64,000 nucleotides of DNA from Terricaulis sp. (GTDB taxonomy: Bacteria > Pseudomonadota > Alphaproteobacteria > Caulobacterales > Aquidulcibacteraceae): the NCBI RefSeq assembly GCF_044224985.1, contig NZ_JBGAJJ010000006.1; one strand, 5' to 3'. The notes below the pieces were generated by a model. The model was not told where the DNA came from. It worked only from the letters and a program-made list of their open reading frames with translations, and did no database searches. This document shows, piece by piece, positions 5,224-47,490 of the stretch. The position numbers and the translations under genes were made by a program. Positions within the stretch are counted from its first letter, which is position 1. Each line of letters starts with the position of its first letter.

Positions 5224-5270
5224 AATGGCTCCCCGGGTAGGATTCGAACCTACGACCAACCGGTTAACAG
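5224..5270 (-). repeat. 47-bp direct repeat equal to the 3' part of tRNA-Asn (distal att-like site)
   Basis: aatggctccccgggtaggattcgaacctacgaccaaccggttaacag is identical to 47414-47460. It covers tRNA-Asn from anticodon loop (CTGTTAA) to CCA plus 2 nt. Identity breaks at the 5' anticodon stem. Confidence 0.9.
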
Positions 5271-5450
5271 AGGGTTGTGAGCGAAATTCCGCGCGACGCC
5301 ACGAGACACGTTGAGCGGCCTAAGTACCTACAGAATAACGATTTCCACAGATCATAATATTCCGCCGCGTTGCGCGTCGTAGCGATGCAGCGCAGCGTTC
5401 CCCGTAGATTCTTCCGTAGATTTTGCGAACCGGTTGGCCGGGGTGCGCGC

Positions 5451-6797
5451 ATGCCGCAAGTCGAGTTGAGTGATAAATTCTGCCGCGCCGCGAAGGCGAG
5501 CGGCGGTGCCAAGACGGACTATTTCGACACCACCGTGAAGGGGCTCTGCCTGCGCGTCAGCGCCGCCGGGATGAAGACTTGGCATGCGGTCTATTCGAAG
5601 CCTGATGGCAAGCGCGCTTGGCTCAAGCTGGGGCGCTACCCAGACGTGCCCCTGGGAGGCAACACCGGGGCCCGCCAGCGGGCCCGGGATGCGCGCGCCA
5701 AGGTCAGCGAGGGTGGTGACCCCGTCGCTGAGAAGAAGGCTCAGGCGTCAGCGCAAACCGTTCGTGACCTTGTGGAGAACTACCTCTCCCGGCGCATCAC
5801 AGGCCGGCGCTCCTATGCTGAGGTCGCCCGCCGCCTCCGCAAGAACGTGTCCGGATGCGATCTCGACGGCAACACCATCGAGGGCCGCTCGGTCGGGTGC
5901 ATTGGAAACCTTAAGCTCGCCGACCTTCACCGGCGCGACATCACGAAGGCGATCGATGCCGTGAAGGACCGCGGCGCCGGCACCGAGGCCAACCGCGTTT
6001 TCGAGGACGTGCGGGCCATGGTGCGCTGGGCGCGCGGGCGCGGCGATTTGGACGATAACATCGTGGAAGGGATGTCAAAGCCAACCGCAACGAAAGACCG
6101 CGAGCGCGTGCTCTTGGCTGACGAGATCGCGGCCATGTGGGCCGCGCTGCCCCACACCGACATGCGCGAAGCTACGCGACGCGTCCTTCGTCTTTGTCTG
6201 GTGACGGCTCAGCGGGTCGGCGAGGTCGCTGGCATGACGCGGGCCGAACTGGACCTACAGCGGGCGCTGTGGACCATACCGGCCGCGCGCGCAAAAAACG
6301 GGCGCGAGCATGTCGTGCCGCTGTCCGACATGGCGCTAAGAATCCTGCGCGAGCAGATTGCCGACGTGGATGCGCTGAGCGCGCGCAAGCGTCGTGACGT
6401 GCCCGGCTTTGTCTTCCCCGCGCCGGGCGCTCGCGCGCCGGTCACCGGCGCGTCTGTGGCGAAAGCGGTCAAGCGTGAGGAGAAGCCTGTCACGGTGTCT
6501 GTCACAGAGCCTGTTACATTGTCTGTCGCGACGATGGGGGTTGCGCCTTGGACCCCTCACGATCTTAGGCGTACCGCCGCGACCTGCATGGAGGAGCTGG
6601 GGGTCTCGCCCTTTGTCGTGGGCCATGTACTCAATCACGTTTCAGCAACGAAGGCGACAGTCACCAGCCGCGTCTACGCCCGATACGACTACGCCAAGGA
6701 GAAGCGCGAAGCGCTTGAACTTTGGGAGGCGCGGTTGATGTCGTTGGTTGTCGACGGAGGCGCAAAGGTCGTGCCTCTGCGGGCGGTGTCGTCGTGA
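5451..6797 (+). CDS. int: tyrosine recombinase, P4-type integrase
   Basis: Start taken at MPQVELSDKF. N-terminal arm-type domain (TDYFDTTVKGLCLRVSAAGMKTWHAVY). Catalytic-core motifs LVTAQRVGEV, HDLRRTAAT, GHVLNH and RVYARYDY. An AT-richer promoter-like stretch lies just upstream (5320-5370). Confidence 0.9.
   Translation: MPQVELSDKFCRAAKASGGAKTDYFDTTVKGLCLRVSAAGMKTWHAVYSKPDGKRAWLKLGRYPDVPLGGNTGARQRARDARAKVSEGGDPVAEKKAQASAQTVRDLVENYLSRRITGRRSYAEVARRLRKNVSGCDLDGNTIEGRSVGCIGNLKLADLHRRDITKAIDAVKDRGAGTEANRVFEDVRAMVRWARGRGDLDDNIVEGMSKPTATKDRERVLLADEIAAMWAALPHTDMREATRRVLRLCLVTAQRVGEVAGMTRAELDLQRALWTIPAARAKNGREHVVPLSDMALRILREQIADVDALSARKRRDVPGFVFPAPGARAPVTGASVAKAVKREEKPVTVSVTEPVTLSVATMGVAPWTPHDLRRTAATCMEELGVSPFVVGHVLNHVSATKATVTSRVYARYDYAKEKREALELWEARLMSLVVDGGAKVVPLRAVSS
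6486..6533 (+). repeat. 4 x degenerate 12-bp tandem repeat inside int
   Basis: cctgtcacggtg / tctgtcacagag / cctgttacattg / tctgtcgcgacg, encoding PVTVSVTEPVTLSVAT, inserted just before the HDLRRT motif. Confidence 0.7.
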
Positions 6798-7776: not shown

Positions 7777-8427
7777 ATGGGCTGGAAAATCTCAGCGTTG
7801 GCAATGCAGCGTCGGCTCGGAAGCTCTGCAGCGAAAGCAGTCATGCTCGCGCTCGCCTATTACGCTGACGACAAAACCGGGCGCAAGATATTTGCGAGTA
7901 TCGACACGCTCGCCGAGCACGCCGATTGTTCGGCTCGCACGGTGCACACCCATCTTCGCAACTTCGAAAAGGCAGGCCTGATCGTTCGCGTGGGCCACCG
8001 CCGCTCCGGCGTCGTGGAGTGGCAGATAAACATTGCAGTGGTTGATGCCCTGCCGCCCGTCCGGACTGCCGCAGAAAGGCGGCGCGATTGCACGAAGACC
8101 CAGTCCTACACCACAGACCCTGTCACAGACGCGGTTGACCTGCAGGGTGTCGCGCGCGACATGCATTCTCTGTCTGCACCTGGGGCAGACGCACCTCTGA
8201 ACGTGGCGCAGACTCCCTCTGCACGTGGTGCAGACAATCCTTCCAACTATCCTTCCAACTATCCTTCCAACTATCCTTCCAGCGTACCGACGCACAAAAC
8301 TGGTTGCCTCATCCGAAGCGCCGCCTCTCAGCTCAAGAGCCACAGCGCGCTGGGGCGACCCAAGCACGGCATGAGCGTGGAGGACTGGCGAGCCGATCAG
8401 CTGCGGAGGATGTCGGAGCAAGGGTGA
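7777..8427 (+). CDS. helix-turn-helix protein, replication-initiator-like (island/phage type)
   Basis: The segment AKAVMLALAYYADDKTGRKIFASIDTLAEHADCSARTVHTHLRNFEKAGLIVRV is a winged-helix pattern. The C-terminus is low-complexity with (NYPS)x3. The start could also be 7693. Confidence 0.6.
   Translation: MGWKISALAMQRRLGSSAAKAVMLALAYYADDKTGRKIFASIDTLAEHADCSARTVHTHLRNFEKAGLIVRVGHRRSGVVEWQINIAVVDALPPVRTAAERRRDCTKTQSYTTDPVTDAVDLQGVARDMHSLSAPGADAPLNVAQTPSARGADNPSNYPSNYPSNYPSSVPTHKTGCLIRSAASQLKSHSALGRPKHGMSVEDWRADQLRRMSEQG
8239..8280 (+). repeat. 3.5 x perfect 12-bp tandem repeat (ccttccaactat)
   Basis: Copies at 8239-8250, 8251-8262 and 8263-8274, plus a half copy at 8275-8280. Encodes PSNYPSNYPSNYPS within the rep-like ORF. 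Confidence 0.9.
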
Positions 8428-9189: not shown

Positions 9190-10767
9190 GTGGCGAAGCC
9201 AACACTGTACCTCTTCCCGGACACCAACATCTTCATCCAGTGCAAGTCGCTGCACGAAGTGGATTGGAGATTGTTGGGCGATTTCGATGAGTTCGTGCTG
9301 CTGATCTGTCGGTCGGTCCAAGACGAGATCGATCAGCAAAAGGGCCGGGGCGCCGGCCGCGTCACCGACCGGGCACGCGCCACCTCGGGCGTGTTTCGCG
9401 GCATGCTGAAATCAGGCGCCGACAAGATCGAGCGCGATGCCGCGCCGCGGGTGCAATTGCGTATGGCGCTGAGGCTGAAGCCGACGCCTAATCTCGGCGA
9501 TCTCGACTACAGCGATGCCGATGACGCGTTGGTCGGCTGCGCCCATGCTTATGCGGCGCAGAACCCCAGCGCCGACGTGCGAGTGTTGACCGACGATGGC
9601 GGTCCGATGGGCTCGGCGGTCTCGATTGGCTTTCCGGTGATCGATGTGCCGGAGCAATGGCTGTTGCCGCCCGAGGCGAGCCCAACGGAGAAGAAACTGG
9701 CGCAGGCGCAGGCCGAGAACGCACGCCTGCGTCAGACCGAACCTGAGATCGCCATTGCCTGCTACGACGCCACGGGCGCCGCGATCACGGCGCTCGCGTT
9801 GAAGCATCAATTGTTTGCGCCGCTGACGGACGCACAGATCGCCGCCTTGATGCAGAAGCTCAAGGATATACACCCGCTTGAAACGGATTTCGGGCCGGAG
9901 GAGCCGCCCGCGCGGACCGCGCCGACGCCGACAGGTCCGCTGTTTACGGAGACGTGGCGTCCAGCAAAAACCGAGGAGGTCGAGGCCTATCGCAACAAGC
10001 GTTATCCGGAATGGCTGACCAAGTGCGAATACGAGCTACGCCATCTGCACTTCAAACTTGAAGCCCGCCAGACGCCGCCGCTGATCCTGTTCGAAGCGGT
10101 GAACACCGGCTCGCGTCCGGCAAGCCAAGTGCGCGTCGACGTCACCGCGCAAGGGGGTGTCGCGGTGCGGCCGCCAGCCTACAAAGATGACGAGGATGAT
10201 GCGGACGGCCAGGTCGCGACCGCCGCCGAGATGACGTTGCCACGTCCGCCGGCAGCGCCCTACGGGCGATGGGAGCGCACGCCGGTGCGTGTCAGTTCGG
10301 CCCTCAGCGCGCTCGATCTTGCCGACAGTTTACGCCGTCAGCTCGACCCGTTCGGCGCTCGCGGCTTCAATCCGGACGGCATGTTCGCCCGCGCGAGCGC
10401 GTTCGCGGAACCGATGATCCCGCCGATCCCGCACTTCGTCCCGCCCCGCCACGACCCCGAGGGGTTTTACTACAAGGGCGGGCGCCCATCAGAACCGAGC
10501 CAAGCATTCGCGCTCACCTGCGATCTCTGGCGTCACGCGCGCGAGCCGCGTGGCTTTGGCGTTGAGTTGTACGCACTCGGCGCCGCGCCCGGCGACGCGA
10601 ACGGCATCGTCACGCTGACGGTGCATGCCGATAATCTCGGCGCACCCGCGGACCTGCCGGTGCCGATGAAGATCAGCATCGCCAACGCCGATGTTTACGC
10701 GGAAGCGGACCAACTGGTTGAAGCGCTGCGCCCCAAATTCAATCTGAAGGCGCTGCGGGGCGGTTAG
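9190..10767 (+). CDS. PIN-like nuclease domain protein with ~370-aa uncharacterised C-terminal region
   Basis: GTG start, 525 aa. PIN-type acidic residues in the expected contexts: LYLFPDTNIFI (D11), VQDEIDQQ (D45/E46/D48), VRVLTDDGGP (D135/D136). The rest has a short coiled-coil-like stretch (EKKLAQAQAENARLRQ) and no motif I can name. Confidence 0.65.
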   Translation: MAKPTLYLFPDTNIFIQCKSLHEVDWRLLGDFDEFVLLICRSVQDEIDQQKGRGAGRVTDRARATSGVFRGMLKSGADKIERDAAPRVQLRMALRLKPTPNLGDLDYSDADDALVGCAHAYAAQNPSADVRVLTDDGGPMGSAVSIGFPVIDVPEQWLLPPEASPTEKKLAQAQAENARLRQTEPEIAIACYDATGAAITALALKHQLFAPLTDAQIAALMQKLKDIHPLETDFGPEEPPARTAPTPTGPLFTETWRPAKTEEVEAYRNKRYPEWLTKCEYELRHLHFKLEARQTPPLILFEAVNTGSRPASQVRVDVTAQGGVAVRPPAYKDDEDDADGQVATAAEMTLPRPPAAPYGRWERTPVRVSSALSALDLADSLRRQLDPFGARGFNPDGMFARASAFAEPMIPPIPHFVPPRHDPEGFYYKGGRPSEPSQAFALTCDLWRHAREPRGFGVELYALGAAPGDANGIVTLTVHADNLGAPADLPVPMKISIANADVYAEADQLVEALRPKFNLKALRGG

Positions 10768-10842: not shown

Positions 10843-10871
10843 TTGTAAAAGTTCGTCATTTGTTCTATAAT
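10843..10871 (+). promoter_or_regulatory. sigma70-like promoter (TTGTAA-17 nt-TATAAT) for the giant NTPase gene
   Basis: -35 TTGTAA at 10843-10848, 17-nt spacer, perfect -10 TATAAT at 10866-10871, inside a local AT-rich patch in otherwise GC-rich DNA. Confidence 0.45.
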
Positions 10872-11000
10872 TGGATATACGAATCGGCGCAGTTTTGCAC
10901 CGGGCGCGAGTGCTACCGCACACGCAAAGAAGCGGGCAGGCGAGCCCCGTTATCGCGTTTGTTTTCCAACCTCGATTTGAACCGACGTCAGAGAGTACCC

Positions 11001-14000
11001 GTGACCAAGTCCGTCACCCCACCGTCCACCGCCGGCGCCGCCGGGCCTTTGTTCGAAGCCCAGGTCGGCGCGAATTATCTGCTTGCGATGTTGCGTGGCG
11101 CTGAGCCGCGCGGACTTCCCGGCTTTGTGTCCGATCGCATCAAACTGCAGCGCGCCGCAGAAGGCCATCCGCTGGATGACGTCATCATCGATGCGCATGA
11201 CGCATCTGGCCTCAAAGCCGTGCTTGAGGTGCAGGTCAAACGGTCGATGACGTTCGCGCCGTCGGATGTAGAATTCAAAGCCGTGGTCCGCCAGATCGCG
11301 GCAGTTCTGCAAAAGCCCGAATTCACCACGCTGCGCTACGAATTGGCGGTCGCCACCGAGCATACCAAGCGCGCCGTGACCGGCGCTTATCAGGAAGTGC
11401 TGAGCTGGGCGCGCAAAATGCAGTCGCCAGCGGAATTCTTCGACAGGATCAAGCGGCCTGGCTCCGGCAATAAGGAGATGCGCGATTTCGTCGAAACGCT
11501 TCGCGCCAATCTGGCCGAGGCGGGCGCCGCCAATGACGAGGCCACGACATGGACCGTTCTTCGTCGCCTGCAAATTCATGTCTACGACTTCAACGCACCA
11601 GGCTCAGCGTGCGAAACCTACGCGCGTGATCGCGCCGCCGACGTCCTGCATATCGAGGACAAGGCGAAGTCAGGATCGCTTTGGGACGTTCTGATAACGA
11701 AGGCCTCGACATTTGCGGCGGGGGGCGGTGATTTCACGCGCGAGAGCCTGCGCGGCGAACTCAGCGAATTCCGCTTTGATGGCGATCGCCGCTACACGCA
11801 CATCCGTAAAGCAATTGAAGAGGCAGCGCAATTCGCACTCGTGGCGATGGCGGACACGATCGACGACGTCGTGCTGGGCCGAACAAAGCGCGCGGCGATG
11901 ATCCGCGCCGCTGCCGATGTCGGCCGTTATGTCGAGGTGCGCGGCGAAGCGGGCGTCGGCAAATCGGGTTTGCTCCGTCATCTTGCCGAAGAAGTGGCGC
12001 GCGAGGGACGCATCCTCGTCGCCGCGCCGCTCCGCATCGCCAAGGGCGGCTGGTCCGCTCTGAAGGGCCAGCTCGGCTTTGAGGGCACGGCGCGGGAATT
12101 GATGAGCGATCTCGCCGCCGACGGCGGCGGCTGGCTGTTCATCGACAACGTCGACTTCTTCGCTGACGACGAGCGCGCAACCGTCGAAGATCTGATGCGC
12201 GCGGCCTCGCACGTGCCGGGAATCGTCGTAGTGGTGAGCGCCCGCCAAAGCTTCGGCGTCGAAGAGCCGAGTTGGCTACCCGCCGACGCCATCGCGCGGC
12301 TCCGGGCAAGTGAGCCCGTCGATATTGGCGAACTCGACGCTGACGAGATCAAGGAGTTGAGGGAGGGCGCCCCGCGCCTTGACGCCTTGCTTGCGCCCGA
12401 CCATCCAGCAAAAGCCGTCACGCGAAATCTTTTCCGCCTGTCGCGCTTGGCCCGCGCCCCGGCTGATGAGCCGCCGCCGCGAACGGAGATCGACCTCGCC
12501 GCGATGTGGTGGCGTACCGCCGACGGCGCTGATGACGCCACTAAACGCGAGCGAGCGCGTATTCTCCGAAAACTCGGCGCCTTGTCGCTTGCGGGCGATC
12601 AGGTGTTCGATGTCAGCGACCTCAACGACACCGCAGCCATTGATGCGCTCGTGCGCAGCGAGACACTCCGCGAGCTGCGCCCTGATCAGATGGTTTTTCG
12701 CCATGACGTGCTGCGTGAGTGGGCGATCGCAAACACTCTCGCCGACGACGTCGCCAATCTTGAGAACCTGCCCCTTGCCGGTGCGGGTTCGCCCGCACAG
12801 GTCCGCGGGCTGCAACTCGCGGCGCGCTTCCAACTCGACAAGGGCGGCGATCCTTCCGCCTGGCGCGCACTGCTCGACGCTGTCAGCGGAGCAGGGCGGC
12901 ACCCGTCGTGGCGACGCGCCGCGATCCTCGCGCCATCGCGGTCAGAGATCTTTGAGGACTTGATGCCGGTTATCGCTGAGCCGCTGCTCGCCAACGATGC
13001 GGCGCTGCTGCGTGAAACCATCCGGCTCGTGTTAGCGGTCGACGTGCAGCCGCTTCGATCGCTCTATGCGGTGGTCGGGCTCGACGCGTCAAAGATACCC
13101 GAAGAAATCACCGTGCCCACGGGCGGCGCGTGGTGGCGCCTAGTCGATTGGCTGATGCAATTGGACGAGGCCTTCCCGCTGAAGGCGTTGCCCGAAATCG
13201 TCGATCTGTTCGCAGGCTGGGCCAAGATCAACCTTGTCTATCCCGACCCCTACACGCCAACCATCATTCACAAATTCGTCGAATGGCTCATCGCGATCGA
13301 TCAGTCCCGCGAGATCAAAGGATGGCACGAACGGAAAGTCGCGTTCGGCGGGGTCGTCAAAGACAAGGAGCTGAACCGGCTCGAAGAGGAGATGCGTCTG
13401 ACGATGGCGCTTTTTGCGACGCGCGCGCCCGATGACGTCAAGGCGTATCTGAAGACGCTGCCGGCGCTCGAACGCAATGATGCGATCTACGAAAAGCTGT
13501 TCGCATTCGACGGCAAGTTCGCTGCTGCGGCGCCTGAGGAATTGGCGGCCATCACGCTCGACGCGCTCGTCAAACCACCCGAAGAGCGCAGGCCACAGCG
13601 TGAGCGGCCTCTCGATGGTGCGCTCAAATTCATCGATCACCGGTTCTTGCCGGAATCGCCCGCCCAGGGCCCGTTCTTCGACTTGCTCACCGAAGCGCCG
13701 GCCGTCGGTCTCAAGCTGATCCGTGATCTGATTGACGCGGCCGTGGCGTACCATGTCAAAGACACCAAGCCGGCGGGATACAACGTCTTCATCGTCGAAC
13801 TGCCCGGCGGCCCGCGGCGCTTCTTATGGCACTTCACCTACGGCTGGGCGCGATCCTCGCGCTATCACAGCATCACGTCCGCTTTGATGGCGCTTGAAGC
13901 GTGGGCGCATGCGCGGATTGAAGCGGGCGCGTCCATCGAGTCTATGATCAGCGAGATCATCGGTCCGCCGGAGACGCCGGCGGCATATCTGCTGATCGTC

Positions 14001-16121
14001 ATTGACCTTCTGCTGTCGCATTGGCCGGACTCGCATGCGGCCGCGGTGCCGTTTGTTGGATGCCCCGAACTTCTGGCGACCGATCTCGGGCGGCCAGTTC
14101 AAGAGAACTTTGAGTTTCCCGACTTCTTCGGGTTGAAGGCGCTGCAGAAAGAGCCGGTCGGACCGAAGCTCGACGAGCTTAAGAGTCGGCCGTCGCGCCG
14201 TTACAGCCTCGACGCGCTGCTCTTCTATTATGCGCGAAATGGCGAGTTTGCCGAAGACCGCGCGGCAATCGTGGCGCGGCTGACAAACGCGAGCGATCGC
14301 CTCGGACCTTACGACGCCGGCGATTCCCTCAGCCAGCCGCGCTTGATGGCGGTTCACGCGCTCAATCGTCTCGATCCCGCTAATTACAAGGCAGTCGACA
14401 TCGCGCGCCGGGACGGCACCACAGTTCCGGGTCTTAAGTATGCACCGCCGCAAGAGGAAGCGGACCACTTCGCGCCGCTGCAAAAGGGCGCAGCGCAGCG
14501 CTCGGATGACGCCGCCTTCGCCACGTTCATCAACAGTATTTTGGATCGTCCAGAGCGTTCGAGCGCAGAGATCGCGGAGCGGGTTTTAGCGTGGGTTAAG
14601 CAGGAGCGTGTCGCCGCCGAGGACGAAGACGCCGCGATGGTGGTCGGTCAGGCGCTGACGGGCGCGGCGCTGATCGCCATGCGCGACGCGACGCCGGCGG
14701 TTCGTGCCGCCAATGCCGCTTGGGCCGAGGAGCGTTTCGCGGCGGCGCTGAAAGAGGAGCCTGACGTCGCGCGCCAGATGCGCGAGGGTTTGCAGTACAA
14801 TCCTGTTGCGATGGCTTTCGCGGGACGCGTCTTCGCTCTGAAGGACGCCACGCCGACGCGAGAGGATTTCAAACGAATACTCGACATGGCCGCCGGCGAC
14901 GCTGCCGCCTCACGCGGCGCGGGTGCGGCGGCGGAGGCGCTTCGCGCGCTCAACCCGCTTTTGCCTCGCGCGGTGATGCGCATCGCTTTCGCGGCATGCG
15001 TCGGCGTGCGCCACGATTGGGACACGCCGCCGGAGGTCAAAGCAGCGAGCAAGGCCGACGCGCGAAAACAACTCGAGCAGCGCATCGAAGCGGAGCTGGG
15101 CTGGTTGTTCGACGGTGGAGCCGAGCCAGATTGGCCGAACTTTCCGTCCGAAAGCATAGGCCGGCGTCGGCGGCACTACATCCGACTTGGACCGGCGCGT
15201 GACGAGGATGAGGCGCCGATGCCCGAGCCCGCGCGAATCGACACATACGTCAATCACCAGAGTGCCGCCGTGTGGCTCCGTGCCTTGTGGCGGCCCGCGA
15301 ATGATCGCTTCTGGCTGCGCGACTTCGTTTCGGCCTACATGGGCTGGACACTCGCCGCGAACGGCGCGGGTCTGGAAGAACGGGAGGAGGTGACCGATCC
15401 ACCGCGCGAGTGGAATCGCATTTTCTTTGTCGTGATGGCCGAGAGCCTGAAGGGTGTCGACGGCGCAGCGATGGAAGCCGCACTGCGCCCCATCACCGAA
15501 TTGCCCGAACGGAATTTCTTCGACGTGATCGCGGAATTGGTCCGCGCGCTGGACGTGATGTTTTTCAACGACGCAGGTGTCGAACCAGATGTCGCCCTGG
15601 CGGGGCGTCGGATGCTCGCCGACCGTCTCGGACAATTGTACGCGTGGCGCGGTCTACGTGGCACGAAGTCCGACGGTGTCGAGATGCATCTCGGTCCCGC
15701 GGGCTCCGTGCTGTTCTTCAATGAGCACGAATTCGGCCAGACGCCGCGCTCGTATCTGCCAGCGGTCATGGTCGAACGGTCATTGGTGTTCTTGTCGGTG
15801 CTACACAAGTTGGCCGTTGCCGCCCCATCGCCTTTCGTCGCGATCATCACTCTGAACTATCTCGACGTAGCGCCGCGCGCTGAACAGCTGCCGCTGCTTC
15901 TGGCGTTCACCGATGCGGCGATCGAGGCGTATCCCGCCGACCGCTCATTCTGGATCGACCATGGCATCGGTCCCCGTGTCTGCCGCTGGCTAGAGACGCT
16001 TTTCGACGCGCGGCCCGCAGCGATCTCGGCCGAGCGAGCCACGATCGATCTCATACTGGCAAAACTGGTCGCGATCGGCGTGACCGAGGCCCATGCCTTG
16101 GAAAGGAAATTCGGCAGCTGA
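11001..16121 (+). CDS. giant (~1706 aa) nuclease-NTPase: Cap4/DUF4297-like PD-(D/E)xK N-domain + P-loop (STAND/AAA-like) NTPase + ~1300-aa helical C-terminal region
   Basis: GTG 11001 is chosen because the longest ORF start (TTG 10860) lies inside the predicted promoter. N-terminus: GPLFEAQVGANYLLAML ... HPLDDVIIDAHD ... LEVQVKRS (a D...QxK nuclease-like pattern). Walker A VRGEAGVGKSGLL at nt 11943-11966. Walker B GWLFIDNVDFF at nt 12132-12155. The long Leu/Ala/Arg-rich C-terminus has no recognisable catalytic motif. Confidence 0.7.
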   Translation: MTKSVTPPSTAGAAGPLFEAQVGANYLLAMLRGAEPRGLPGFVSDRIKLQRAAEGHPLDDVIIDAHDASGLKAVLEVQVKRSMTFAPSDVEFKAVVRQIAAVLQKPEFTTLRYELAVATEHTKRAVTGAYQEVLSWARKMQSPAEFFDRIKRPGSGNKEMRDFVETLRANLAEAGAANDEATTWTVLRRLQIHVYDFNAPGSACETYARDRAADVLHIEDKAKSGSLWDVLITKASTFAAGGGDFTRESLRGELSEFRFDGDRRYTHIRKAIEEAAQFALVAMADTIDDVVLGRTKRAAMIRAAADVGRYVEVRGEAGVGKSGLLRHLAEEVAREGRILVAAPLRIAKGGWSALKGQLGFEGTARELMSDLAADGGGWLFIDNVDFFADDERATVEDLMRAASHVPGIVVVVSARQSFGVEEPSWLPADAIARLRASEPVDIGELDADEIKELREGAPRLDALLAPDHPAKAVTRNLFRLSRLARAPADEPPPRTEIDLAAMWWRTADGADDATKRERARILRKLGALSLAGDQVFDVSDLNDTAAIDALVRSETLRELRPDQMVFRHDVLREWAIANTLADDVANLENLPLAGAGSPAQVRGLQLAARFQLDKGGDPSAWRALLDAVSGAGRHPSWRRAAILAPSRSEIFEDLMPVIAEPLLANDAALLRETIRLVLAVDVQPLRSLYAVVGLDASKIPEEITVPTGGAWWRLVDWLMQLDEAFPLKALPEIVDLFAGWAKINLVYPDPYTPTIIHKFVEWLIAIDQSREIKGWHERKVAFGGVVKDKELNRLEEEMRLTMALFATRAPDDVKAYLKTLPALERNDAIYEKLFAFDGKFAAAAPEELAAITLDALVKPPEERRPQRERPLDGALKFIDHRFLPESPAQGPFFDLLTEAPAVGLKLIRDLIDAAVAYHVKDTKPAGYNVFIVELPGGPRRFLWHFTYGWARSSRYHSITSALMALEAWAHARIEAGASIESMISEIIGPPETPAAYLLIVIDLLLSHWPDSHAAAVPFVGCPELLATDLGRPVQENFEFPDFFGLKALQKEPVGPKLDELKSRPSRRYSLDALLFYYARNGEFAEDRAAIVARLTNASDRLGPYDAGDSLSQPRLMAVHALNRLDPANYKAVDIARRDGTTVPGLKYAPPQEEADHFAPLQKGAAQRSDDAAFATFINSILDRPERSSAEIAERVLAWVKQERVAAEDEDAAMVVGQALTGAALIAMRDATPAVRAANAAWAEERFAAALKEEPDVARQMREGLQYNPVAMAFAGRVFALKDATPTREDFKRILDMAAGDAAASRGAGAAAEALRALNPLLPRAVMRIAFAACVGVRHDWDTPPEVKAASKADARKQLEQRIEAELGWLFDGGAEPDWPNFPSESIGRRRRHYIRLGPARDEDEAPMPEPARIDTYVNHQSAAVWLRALWRPANDRFWLRDFVSAYMGWTLAANGAGLEEREEVTDPPREWNRIFFVVMAESLKGVDGAAMEAALRPITELPERNFFDVIAELVRALDVMFFNDAGVEPDVALAGRRMLADRLGQLYAWRGLRGTKSDGVEMHLGPAGSVLFFNEHEFGQTPRSYLPAVMVERSLVFLSVLHKLAVAAPSPFVAIITLNYLDVAPRAEQLPLLLAFTDAAIEAYPADRSFWIDHGIGPRVCRWLETLFDARPAAISAERATIDLILAKLVAIGVTEAHALERKFGS

Positions 16122-16154: not shown

Positions 16155-16181
16155 GAAGGCCCGACCTCGGGCTTCCGTTTT
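16155..16181 (+). terminator. rho-independent terminator after the giant gene
   Basis: Stem GAAGGCCCG / CGGGCTTC (8 bp, one bulged G), loop ACCT, followed by CGTTTTGTG. Lies 34 nt after the stop at 16121. Confidence 0.5.
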
Positions 16182-16363
16182 GTGCTGCGAGGCTGCTAGC
16201 TTCCGAAAATGGGATAAACCGTCGTCCAAGGTCGCACCGTTCGACTTGAGAGTGGACTCGATTCCTCCCGCCGATGGGTAGGCCCTCGAAATCGGATGCA
16301 GGCCGCAGTTCGCTCCTCTAAGCTCTGTCTTGTGGTCTGGCCGTTGGGGAGGGCGATCGGACG

Positions 16364-17323
16364 ATGTCATTATCCGGCCCTTTCGGTTGGTTGCTCGCCG
16401 CCTCTTGGGGCCTTGTCATCGTGGGGATACTGGCCGCCATTTGGGTCGGCTATGTTCTTCCGCGGATAAAACGCACGCTCAAACGAATTGGCAGAGCGCT
16501 TCGTAGGCGCAACGCGTTCAAAGCGCACGGGTTCGGCCAAGGCGCTGGAAGGCATCGCCCGCCTCCTACTCAAGAGAGCGTGGCGCTGCGCGAACAACGC
16601 CCGGCTGGATCGAACGTGTTTTCCAGCCGCTCCTATTTCGCCTTCATTAGTTACGCCCACGCCAACAAGCGCTACGCGCGTTCGCTGCAACGCCGACTCG
16701 AGGCGTTCAAGGTGCACAAGCCCGTCGAAGGCAACAGCGCTCTGATAGGCGAGGGCAGATTAGGGCTTATTTTTCAGGACGAAGCTGAGCTGGGCGCCGC
16801 TGCCGATCTGGGTGAGGTTCTGCGAAGCGCCCTGGAGGCTTCCCAGAACCTCATAGTGATCTGTTCGCCCGCTTCCGCGAAGTCGCACTGGGTGAACGAA
16901 GAAATCCTGCATTTCAGGCGTGCCTGGATCGAACGGCGCTACGCCGGCACGGCGGGGGGCGAGAACACTGCGGGCGGGCGCATTCTCGCTGTTGTTCTCA
17001 ACGGAGGCCCGGCTTCCTCCGAAAGCGAGGTGGCGGAGGCCGTGTTGCCCGCGGCCATGCGCGAAGGGAATTCGATGGAAGGACCCGAGACAATCGTGAT
17101 GGCCGGCAGCAAGCCCTCCGACACCGATTTCGTGACCCGTCTGGTCGCGCACATGTTGGATGTGCCGTTCGCCGCGCTCGCGAAGGATCGGACGAACCGG
17201 AGGACCGAGATCACAAAGATTTTGGCCGTTGGCGCTCTTTGTCTAGCGCTCTTCGTGGCGTTTTCCGAACCACTCGGCCGCTGGTATTTGGAGTTCGCCA
17301 TGAACCTTCCCTGGATGCGTTGA
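16364..17323 (+). CDS. membrane-anchored TIR-domain protein (TM-TIR-TM)
   Basis: 319 aa. RBS GGGGAGGG upstream. N-terminal TM (GWLLAASWGLVIVGILAAIWVGYVL) followed by a basic cluster. TIR motifs YFAFISYAHANKRYA, LIFQDEAEL and NLIVICSPASAKSHWVNEEILHF (an SxW..E motif with candidate catalytic Glu E180, nt 16901-16903). C-terminal TM (ILAVGALCLALFVAF). Confidence 0.75.
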   Translation: MSLSGPFGWLLAASWGLVIVGILAAIWVGYVLPRIKRTLKRIGRALRRRNAFKAHGFGQGAGRHRPPPTQESVALREQRPAGSNVFSSRSYFAFISYAHANKRYARSLQRRLEAFKVHKPVEGNSALIGEGRLGLIFQDEAELGAAADLGEVLRSALEASQNLIVICSPASAKSHWVNEEILHFRRAWIERRYAGTAGGENTAGGRILAVVLNGGPASSESEVAEAVLPAAMREGNSMEGPETIVMAGSKPSDTDFVTRLVAHMLDVPFAALAKDRTNRRTEITKILAVGALCLALFVAFSEPLGRWYLEFAMNLPWMR

Positions 17324-18405
17324 TGCCCGCCCTCGCCGAAGAATCCGTCGCTTCGCGCTTCTTCTTCAAGGCGTGCGTGCTTCATCTGGCTGCCGATCGA
17401 GCCGATGCCGGCTGGATATTCAAAGGCTTGGACAACTTCTTCGTGGACAAAGCGTCAATCGATTCAGGCTACCCGCAAGTGTACGCGGAGGCCGAGCCGC
17501 TGGGCTGGATCGCAAGCTTATGCCTGGTGCCCGGCGAGGCGCCGGACCTCAGCGTGGATGAGCAGCATATATTGGACAGTTCGGAAGTGTTGGTCGTCGT
17601 TTGCTCACACAAGACAATGGCGTCCGCGAAGGCCGACCGAGCGTTGAGGTATTTCAAGTCGAAAGGGCAGGCGCGCAAGGTTTTGGCCGCCATATCGGCA
17701 GAGGCGGCGGCGATGACCGGTGCGGCGCTGCCGCCGCTACCGCCTGCGCTGCGATACGAAGTTGACGACGACGGAGCTCTTTCGGAACGACCCCAAGAAG
17801 TGCTGGCTGTGCATCTGCGGGGCGAACCGCGCGCGCGTGCTTTGGCGAGGATCGCCTCCGGCGTGATGGACGTTCCTTTCGATGCAATTTGGGACCGCGG
17901 GGCGAAGACCGAAATCGGCCGTCTTTGGTGGGCGCTTCCGCTCGCATTGAGCGGCGTCCTCTTGGTGGGTGTGGCCGCTATGGTTATGGCGCGCCCTGTC
18001 GTTCGGGACTACGTCGCCGAGCTGACGCCCGCATTGTTGAATGCGTCGGCAGAGGCGCTCGCGGATGGCGACACGCAGAAGTCGGCTCGCCTTGCTTTGG
18101 TCTCGATCTATGCAGCGCGGTTTCCCTTCTATGAGCAGGATGCAGACGCATCGGAATCCCGGCTGCGCGCGGCGCTGGCTGCGGACCTGGAGAACCGCGC
18201 GCAGGCGGAGAGCGTGCGCCGCGCGCCGCCGATTGCGACGCTCGGCGGAAAAGAGCTTGTCAAGCGGGCTTGCGCAACGACCCTCGCCGATGGCCGCGGG
18301 CGGATGTCGGACGAAGAGGTCGAAATGCTCCGCTACGACCCTGCCGGACCTTATCGCGACCTCTGCCGCTATCCGCTCTGGCTCGTCTCGGACCGGGCGA
18401 GCTGA
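17323..18405 (+). CDS. degenerate TIR-like paralogue + TM + ~137-aa C-terminal (probably periplasmic) domain
   Basis: ATG 17323 overlaps the upstream TGA (TGATG). Collinear with the upstream protein: RFFFKACVLH vs YFAFISYAH; VLVVVCSHKTMASAKADRALRYF vs LIVICSPASAKSHWVNEEILHF (W and E replaced by K and A); GVMDVPFDAIWDRG vs HMLDVPFAALAKDR. TM is LWWALPLALSGVLLVGVAAMVMA. The C-terminal tail has 2 Cys. Confidence 0.65.
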   Translation: MPALAEESVASRFFFKACVLHLAADRADAGWIFKGLDNFFVDKASIDSGYPQVYAEAEPLGWIASLCLVPGEAPDLSVDEQHILDSSEVLVVVCSHKTMASAKADRALRYFKSKGQARKVLAAISAEAAAMTGAALPPLPPALRYEVDDDGALSERPQEVLAVHLRGEPRARALARIASGVMDVPFDAIWDRGAKTEIGRLWWALPLALSGVLLVGVAAMVMARPVVRDYVAELTPALLNASAEALADGDTQKSARLALVSIYAARFPFYEQDADASESRLRAALAADLENRAQAESVRRAPPIATLGGKELVKRACATTLADGRGRMSDEEVEMLRYDPAGPYRDLCRYPLWLVSDRAS

Positions 18406-47415: not shown

Positions 47416-47490
47416 TGGCTCCCCGGGTAGGATTCGAACCTACGACCAACCGGTTAACAGCCGGTTGCTCTACCACTGAGCTACCGAGGA
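47416..47490 (-). tRNA. tRNA-Asn (anticodon GTT)
   Basis: Reverse complement TCCTCGGTAGCTCAGTGGTAGAGCAACCGGCTGTTAACCGGTTGGTCGTAGGTTCGAATCCTACCCGGGGAGCCA folds as a cloverleaf: 7-bp acceptor stem (one G-U), anticodon loop CTGTTAA, T-loop TTCGAAT, encoded CCA. Confidence 0.9.

Follow-up and report, generated by a model that had tools for sequence, protein, structure and literature searches.

What kind of protein is encoded by a giant gene of Terricaulis sp. at positions 11001 to 16121 of contig stretch NZ_JBGAJJ010000006.1, and to what would it respond? We addressed this question computationally within a 64,000-nt stretch of that contig (the window), numbering residues from the GTG codon at 11001. 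We conclude that the product is likely a single-chain antiviral STAND (Avs-type) nuclease, a deep-branching relative of Avs4. An earlier reading made from the sequence alone (the sequence-only reading) had recognized in it the order of effector, NTPase and sensor that is typical of Avs/STAND proteins, and our results support this three-part chain, with a sensor of ~1100 aa. The gene and its parts are as follows.

11001..16121, plus strand: coding sequence, read as Cap4-type nuclease, STAND NTPase and Avs4-fold sensor; GTG start taken from an identical record and from homologues
11001..11870, plus strand: effector domain, residues 1-290, predicted Cap4-type PD-(D/E)xK core with a helical extension (AlphaFold2 model, Foldseek, conservation)
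11883..12791, plus strand: STAND NTPase, residues ~295-597, with nucleotide-binding, helical and winged-helix domains (sub-threshold hidden Markov models, conservation, EcAvs4 alignment)
12798..16118, plus strand: sensor, residues ~600-1706, predicted to fold like the EcAvs4 portal sensor, as an alpha-helical solenoid that includes a few beta-hairpins (AlphaFold2, Foldseek, hidden Markov models and hhalign)

The longest plus-strand frame around the gene spans 10860..16121, and the open reading frame (ORF) that runs within it from GTG 11001 to the TGA stop at 16121 encodes 1706 residues, which agrees with the single-gene protein of ~1700 aa first proposed. We placed the start at 11001 because an identical 1706-aa sequence is present in a public protein collection (P0003) and because the N-termini of homologues begin there: more than 550 homologues were found in the protein collection, and the best 120 are nearly all 1685–1740 aa long and aligned from their first residues. 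A start at TTG 10860, giving 1753 aa by the addition of 47 codons, was rejected on the same evidence, and the added codons would, moreover, overlap with the -10 hexamer of the promoter candidate described below. A true start far downstream is likewise contradicted by the identical record and by the matching N-termini. All of the motifs that the sequence-only reading had quoted (GPLFEAQVGANYLLAML, HPLDDVIIDAHD, LEVQVKRS, Walker A and Walker B) are present where it placed them; its Walker A lysine, named K368, becomes K321 when counted from GTG 11001, as the former number counts from TTG 10860.

Whole-protein scans of Pfam, NCBIfam and PADLOC returned sub-threshold matches only and assigned no family. 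An AlphaFold2 (AF2) model of residues 507-1706 (predicted local distance difference test, pLDDT, 90.0; predicted template modeling score, pTM, 0.80) is mainly helical; the C-terminus, once described as all-helical, is predominantly so, but includes a few short hairpins. Foldseek matched this model to the portal-bound sensor of EcAvs4 (8dgf) over ~1280 columns (E 2e-19; template modeling (TM) score 0.65 for the query, TMq, and 0.53 for the target, TMt), while the remaining PDB matches, among them karyopherins, PA200 and CAND1, were alpha-solenoids of a generic kind that scored a TM of 0.21 or less. When a 25-member family profile was searched against the PDB, EcAvs4 8dgf was the sole meaningful sequence match (E 2.7e-11), in three colinear stretches that cover the P-loop, the winged helix with the early sensor, and a mid-sensor block. 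The mid-sensor block pairs FLPASPAQGPFF with YYPESPYQTPIY and TSALMALEAWAH with SSIHMALEKFF of EcAvs4.

We then compared the family by hhalign with a canonical Avs4 alignment of 24 sequences, gathered by starting from an annotated avs4 gene on an E. coli plasmid. The match had a probability of 98.9% (E 3.7e-17) over 928 columns at 15% identity and joined residues 287-1270 here to residues 203-1201 of Avs4; the N-terminal effector domains were left unaligned. In their Foldseek clustering of Avs sensors, Lee et al. (Nature 2026; PMC13581612) required 80% coverage, an E-value of 1e-10 and a TM score of 0.40. The predicted sensor model exceeds these thresholds and would therefore fall in the Avs4 structural cluster. 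The sequence-only reading had left undecided whether the protein belongs to a known Avs clade or stands for a new one. Homology to Avs4 is seen in the NTPase and the sensor, yet the protein lies outside the Avs4 hidden Markov models (HMMs); a deep-branching sister of Avs4 is the description that suits the family best.

Because the sensor's only structural relative is the portal-bound sensor of Avs4, the phage portal protein heads the list of possible triggers, and, judging from the model, we would give it nearly an even chance. Alternatively, the same Cap4-STAND machine could respond to another conserved phage protein, such as a capsid protein, a terminase, a tail part or a replication protein, or to a host factor that infection alters, which we regard as possible, if somewhat doubtful. 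Such a trigger would suit an identity to Avs4 of just 13–15%, a C-terminal stretch of ~440 residues with no detectable Avs4 sequence similarity, and the range of the Avs families, which sense at least 14 different phage proteins (Lee et al. 2026, PMC13581612); KpAvs2-type sensors are reported to recognize several phage proteins (PMC11564622). It is harder to reconcile with the superposition of the whole sensor on portal-bound EcAvs4 (TM 0.65), to which nothing else in the PDB comes near, or with the report that Avs sensors recognize folds and not sequences, their structural clusters mostly tracking one target (PMC13581612). A search of BFVD found no viral predicted structure that resembles the sensor. 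We consider it unlikely, though worth stating, that this sister family of Avs4 has been retuned to another trigger, or to the portals of phages unseen by canonical Avs4; the C-terminal ~440 residues would then form a new recognition surface.

The NTPase module carries the STAND signatures in full: Walker A, Walker B, the sensor-1 arginine and the winged-helix histidine. Walker A (GEAGVGKS) occupies residues 315-322 (nt 11943-11966) and includes K321, and Walker B (WLFIDNVD) occupies residues 378-385 (nt 12132-12155) and includes D382 and D385. We counted residue conservation over 191 full-length relatives. K321, S322 and D382 are each kept in 191 of 191, the winged-helix residue H568 in 190 and the sensor-1 residue R415 in 182. 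H568 belongs to the motif FRHDVLREW, which follows a beta-hairpin in the model and aligns with THDIYEEWA of EcAvs4; we take its histidine to be the winged-helix histidine of STAND/NLR proteins. Pfam matches to nSTAND5, AAA_16, AAA_30 and NACHT fall below their gathering scores, yet recur in 15–21 of the 25 members, and canonical EcAvs4 likewise has sub-threshold P-loop matches only. The recurrence of these STAND matches, together with the near-invariant motif residues, bears out the NTPase core.

The N-terminal domain is supported as a Cap4-type PD-(D/E)xK nuclease by its predicted fold. The AF2 model of residues 1-300, built from a 71-sequence alignment (pLDDT 85.7, pTM 0.78), contains a helix at 16-32, strands at 42-49, 60-67 and 72-80, a helix at 90-103 and a strand at 112-120, which is the alpha-beta-beta-beta-alpha-beta core of PD-(D/E)xK nucleases, followed by a helical extension. 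The core lies at about residues 14-125, with E19, D59, D60, E76, Q78 and K80 as its key residues; P57-L58-D59-D60 stands at the start of strand 2 and E76-x-Q78-x-K80 on strand 3. Four of these residues are close to invariant across the relatives (D59, D60 and Q78 in 190 of 191; K80 in 188 of 191). When the model was compared with the PDB, the top Foldseek matches were all Cap4-type nucleases with a probability of 1.0: LmuA of Lamassu (9hr5, E 5.7e-7), Cap4 of A. baumannii and M. osloensis (6wam, 6wan, 6vm6 and 6vm5, E 4e-6 to 5e-5), the N-terminal domain of SeAvs3 (8dgc, E 3.7e-5) and HamA of Hachiman (8zue, E 9e-5). EcAvs4 (8dgf) was outside the top 50.

The protein itself matched no Pfam nuclease family at E ≤ 1. 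The Cap4-type assignment is supported because of the fold and the conserved residues, and not by a Pfam model. Of the Cap4/DUF4297-type nuclease that the sequence-only reading had proposed, the fold and the residues were recovered, but not membership of the Pfam DUF4297 or Cap4_nuclease HMM; the nuclease fold as such is upheld by the core topology and by the Cap4-type nucleases that head the Foldseek list.

The same architecture recurs throughout a large family. An exhaustive search with the sensor alone (residues 600-1706), clustered at 50% identity, returned 933 clusters at E ≤ 1e-3, of which 270 reach E ≤ 1e-30. In the full-length proteins, the sensor starts at about residue 600, and all but two full-length representatives keep the same N-domain and NTPase; the architecture is thus fixed even where the sensors are no more than ~26% identical. 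The chain is conserved rather evenly: mean pairwise identity is 0.64 for the nuclease core, 0.58 for the nucleotide-binding domain and 0.42–0.51 for the sensor. Named members come from Hyphomonadaceae (83% identity), Allomesorhizobium (57%), Nitrospirota, Actinomycetota and other Pseudomonadota. Relatives occur on 29 plasmid records, including megaplasmids of Sinorhizobium, Rhizobium and Neorhizobium and a plasmid of Pseudomonas mandelii; 9 of the 29 match at least 80% of the protein, and 14 of the 29 plasmids are typed as conjugative. No family member was found in a search of phage records. Among 24 sampled genomes of other species in the genus, the gene was not found; the nearest thing to it, in one genome, is a distinct STAND gene with weak similarity (E 7e-6). 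Canonical Avs4, sought with NF041815, gave one partial match in 400 genomes of the same phylum and no match in the genome studied here.

By analogy with characterized systems, we think it likely that the STAND protein employs the general Avs-type mechanism. In the uninfected cell, it would be a closed, ADP-bound and autoinhibited monomer, as we infer from Avs3, Avs4 and Avs7. During infection, the ~1100-residue helical sensor would wrap around a conserved phage protein, with the portal as the first candidate, since the Avs4 sensor binds the portal. Binding would open the NTPase (K321, D382, R415 and H568), and ATP binding would drive oligomerization, most likely into a tetramer. The oligomer would then join the Cap4-type PD-(D/E)xK domains (D59/D60 and E76-x-Q78-x-K80) into an active endonuclease for double-stranded DNA, which would degrade phage and host DNA indiscriminately and thereby abort the infection. 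The gene would act alone, with no partner gene, and it travels as the cargo of mobile elements: a tRNA-Asn island here, and integrase/transposase islands and rhizobial megaplasmids elsewhere. The Avs3/Avs4 mechanism that is the basis of the transferred steps is reportedly that of Gao et al. in 2022. Phage-protein sensing, ATP-dependent tetramerization and nuclease assembly are steps of characterized Avs proteins (PMC13581612).

Several observations weigh against this identification and have to be set beside it. The protein scores 14.4 bits against the NCBIfam Avs4 model NF041815, whose cut-off is 1500, and E 0.0075 against the PADLOC Avs4 model. The last ~440 sensor residues resemble Avs4 in predicted structure only, with no sequence similarity by hhalign, and at 13–15% identity the ligand may well differ from that of Avs4. 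Tetramerization, ATP dependence and DNA cleavage are carried over from Avs3, Avs4 and Avs7. No Pfam nuclease family, Cap4_nuclease/DUF4297 included, was matched at E ≤ 0.1 when 25 members were scanned singly. The two plasmid copies that we examined, from cultured Rhizobium and Pseudomonas strains, are labeled 'hypothetical protein' in RefSeq. Three of eight homologue loci lie among ordinary metabolic genes with no recognizable defence gene nearby. Lastly, the sequence is present in DNA metagenome runs only (bioreactor, wastewater and sludge), with no RNA run among the 20 runs listed.

Whether the gene forms a transcription unit of its own was considered from its flanks, where two candidate signals were found.

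10843..10871, plus strand: candidate sigma-70-like promoter, TTGTAA-17-TATAAT, in an AT-rich patch (consensus scan)
16157..16184, plus strand: weak intrinsic-terminator-like hairpin, then CCGTTTTGTG (scan match; hairpin and T-run at 16157-16174)

The promoter-like site, proposed at 10843-10871 by the sequence-only reading, was recovered as the region's best sigma-70-like match at the level of consensus: it agrees at 10 of 12 consensus positions and ranks top of 5 sites in a 6-kb region, where shuffled sequences give 0.9. It would place the start of transcription near 10878 and give a leader of ~120 nt. At the other end, a terminator had been placed at 16155-16181; the scan detected its hairpin and T-run, but the region folds no better than shuffled sequence (z = +1.0), and the signal is weak. 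Intergenic gaps of 233 nt upstream and 242 nt downstream separate the gene from its neighbors, and six homologues stand between differing neighbors, again with gaps. We grade the proposed independent unit as plausible. These signals might also be chance matches beside a silent copy or a non-functional remnant, a reading in keeping with a promoter that is a consensus match only, a weak terminator and the lack of an RNA run among the 20 listed. The 5.1-kb frame is intact, however, the catalytic and nucleotide-binding residues are all present, and a homologue from a different genome is 83% identical over the full length, all of which makes a dead copy very improbable.

The homologue loci bear on whether the STAND gene needs a partner. 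The six homologues on long contigs have entirely different neighbors and intergenic gaps on both sides in every case, and across eight homologue loci no partner gene is conserved beside the family members. This absence of a conserved neighbor, together with the flanking gaps, fits a self-contained single-gene unit. The neighbors include integrases, transposases and a relaxase; HigB, RES-Xre and PIN-Phd toxin–antitoxin pairs; and a DruE-like helicase, a pAgo-associated-like protein, PDC-S36 and PDC-M54A. As a raw count from a small sample, 3 of the 6 loci have a defence or candidate-defence gene no farther than 10 kb away. On one metagenomic island, a genuine PDC-M54A gene (E 2e-133; 6 kb away) and an unassigned 1548-aa ORF both lie no more than 7 kb from a homologue, which makes three giant genes in a row (L004:19605-21145 and L004:14257-18903).

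A role that is not primarily antiviral, such as plasmid or island exclusion, addiction or a housekeeping STAND regulator, should be weighed against this distribution. In every case the family is found on accessory or mobile DNA, be it an island, a megaplasmid or a site beside transposases; some of its loci have no other defence genes nearby, and non-defence STAND clades are interspersed with defence clades. Yet the conserved and intact Cap4-type nuclease effector is a hallmark of defence, Avs4 is the only relative of known function, no DNA-binding or regulatory output domain was found by Pfam in the protein or in 25 members, and the distribution within the genus is patchy; we consider such a role improbable. 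The antiviral reading finds both a defence-type effector, of Cap4 type, and a defence-associated context, in the form of a TIR-domain neighbor.

The genomic setting of the gene is a 42-kb island, whose ends and relevant neighbors are listed here.

5226..5270, no strand assigned: left boundary of the island, 45 bp that repeat the 3' half of tRNA-Asn without a mismatch (2 exact matches against a chance expectation of 0)
5370-6797: P4-type integrase gene, adjoining the left repeat and far from the intact tRNA (integrase domains)
9190-10767, plus strand: gene next to the STAND gene on its upstream side; 525-aa product with a PIN_4 domain at the N-terminus (E 4e-5) and an unassigned C-terminal part of 370 aa; no PADLOC match
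16364-17323, plus strand: TIR-domain gene directly downstream (TIR_2/ThsB_TIR, 319 aa); no PADLOC match
16364-18405, plus strand: the TIR gene with an overlapping 388-aa ORF, which has no PADLOC match
47416..47460, no strand assigned: right boundary of the island, where these 45 bp recur within an intact tRNA-Asn(GTT) gene at 47416-47490 on the minus strand (tRNA and repeat search)

ARAGORN and Rfam placed no tRNA near the integrase, and a general repeat search within 4.6–19 kb gave nothing convincing; the attachment-site repeat came to light only when the sequence beside the integrase was set against the distant tRNA-Asn. In a same-genus genome (L014), the island is absent at this site: the left flank is followed by a different 2.8-kb stretch, tRNA-Asn/tRNA-Cys and then the sequence at 48.3–52.2 kb of the window. 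Based on the flanking repeats and this island-free genome, the STAND gene is cargo of a 42-kb island integrated at tRNA-Asn. The island also carries hemN/moa/nar anaerobic-respiration genes and defence-like genes. Upstream of the STAND gene lie the P4-type integrase gene, a gene for an HTH_36 protein and the PIN_4 gene; within the rep-like HTH_36 gene, a repeat scan found a 12-bp in-frame tandem repeat, CCTTCCAACTAT, of ~3.5 units (window 8234-8281). A two-gene system with the PIN_4 or TIR gene was rejected, as neither neighbor recurs at any of the eight homologue loci that we examined. A protein encoded close to one homologue is exactly as long as the PIN_4 protein (525 aa), but the two are unrelated.

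What follows from placing the gene beside Avs4 is partly a matter of annotation. About 900 sequence clusters that are now labeled 'hypothetical protein' or 'ATP-binding protein' become readable as Avs4-related Cap4 nucleases. Since the Avs4 HMMs miss the family, Avs proteins are probably undercounted in defence censuses of Alphaproteobacteria, of Nitrospirota and of wastewater communities; rhizobial megaplasmids often carry the family, as do bacteria of soil and wastewater. Tractable hosts are offered by the copies in cultured strains of Rhizobium and Pseudomonas and on Sinorhizobium and Neorhizobium plasmids; the orthologues include one on plasmid pR132501 of R. leguminosarum WSM1325 (WP_050786647.1) and one on an S. 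meliloti megaplasmid. The conceptual gain would be small unless the trigger differs from the portal, in which case the family and canonical Avs4 would be a natural pair for studies of sensor specificity. If the sensor has indeed been retuned, the two would show a single sensor scaffold changing its specificity over deep time.

Compared with known systems, the combination of Cap4, STAND and helical sensor is itself already well known, as are its domain logic, effector and sensor fold. The 2026 survey of Lee et al. (PMC13581612) distinguishes 589 STAND clades and 684 sensor clusters, and the family has very probably been counted there, without a name or a test. The N-domain shares its fold, and the acidic and QxK/ExK residues on strands 2 and 3, with the Cap4-type effectors of CBASS (Cap4, 6vm6/6wam), LmuA (9hr5), SeAvs3 (8dgc) and HamA (8zue). 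It differs from these structures by an identity of 9–14% and by the lack of a Pfam Cap4_nuclease match, and it is fused to an Avs4-like sensor instead of SAVED, LmuB/C or the Avs3 sensor. The Cap4 domain is activated by tetramerization in Avs3 and Avs7 (PMC13581612). SeAvs7, which consists of a Cap4 nuclease, a STAND module and a bilobed TPR sensor of the major capsid protein, has the same effector type and overall logic (PMC13581612), whereas the sensor here matches Avs4; the likeness to Avs7 is by description only.

PDC-M54A, a phage-defence candidate that PADLOC lists on the basis of guilt-by-embedding and the best of the weak PADLOC matches, is of similar size (1621–1657 aa), shows weak colinear similarity over the N-domain and NTPase (E 2e-6, 376–400 residues) and can share an island with a family member. 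A genuine PDC-M54A member scores E 2e-133, however, and no similarity to the C-terminus of PDC-M54A was detected; we rejected membership and regard the two as distinct paralogous families. Two further giant proteins came to light during these comparisons. One, in genome G025 (L011:2029-7356), has 1775 aa, is 25–27% identical to the STAND protein over most of its length and matches PDC-M54A with E 4e-12. The other, in same-genus genome G014 (L012:876-5624), has 1582 aa, matches residues 183-418 only (27%) and scores E 1e-9 against PDC-M54A. The two suggest that giant STAND proteins akin to PDC-M54A and Avs4 make up a broader superfamily that is still poorly catalogued. Separately, a 1655-aa 'hypothetical protein' on plasmid pHALHY01 of Haliscomenobacter hydrossis (L019:744-5711) is another unannotated Avs4-like lineage: it is 24% identical to Avs4 over the sensor, matches the family studied here by hhalign with a probability of 98.4% and has an N-domain of ~270 aa, against 200 aa in EcAvs4.

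The closest comparison is with Avs4 itself. Both are single chains of ~1600–1700 aa that join a nuclease, a STAND NTPase and a giant helical sensor, and the genes of both stand alone and are carried by mobile DNA. Sequence profiles show homology in the NTPase, in the winged helix (FRHDVLREW here, THDIYEEWA in Avs4) and in the first ~670 residues of the sensor, and the predicted fold is shared over the full sensor (TM 0.65). The two differ in sequence, with an identity of 13–15% and curated Avs4 HMMs that fail on the protein described here, and in their effectors, since the Cap4-like domain here does not align with the N-domain of EcAvs4. The latter is said to be Mrr-like, an assignment attributed to Gao et al. 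in 2022. They also differ in where they are found: in contrast to the enterobacterial setting of Avs4, the present family occurs mainly in Alphaproteobacteria, Nitrospirota and environmental metagenomes.

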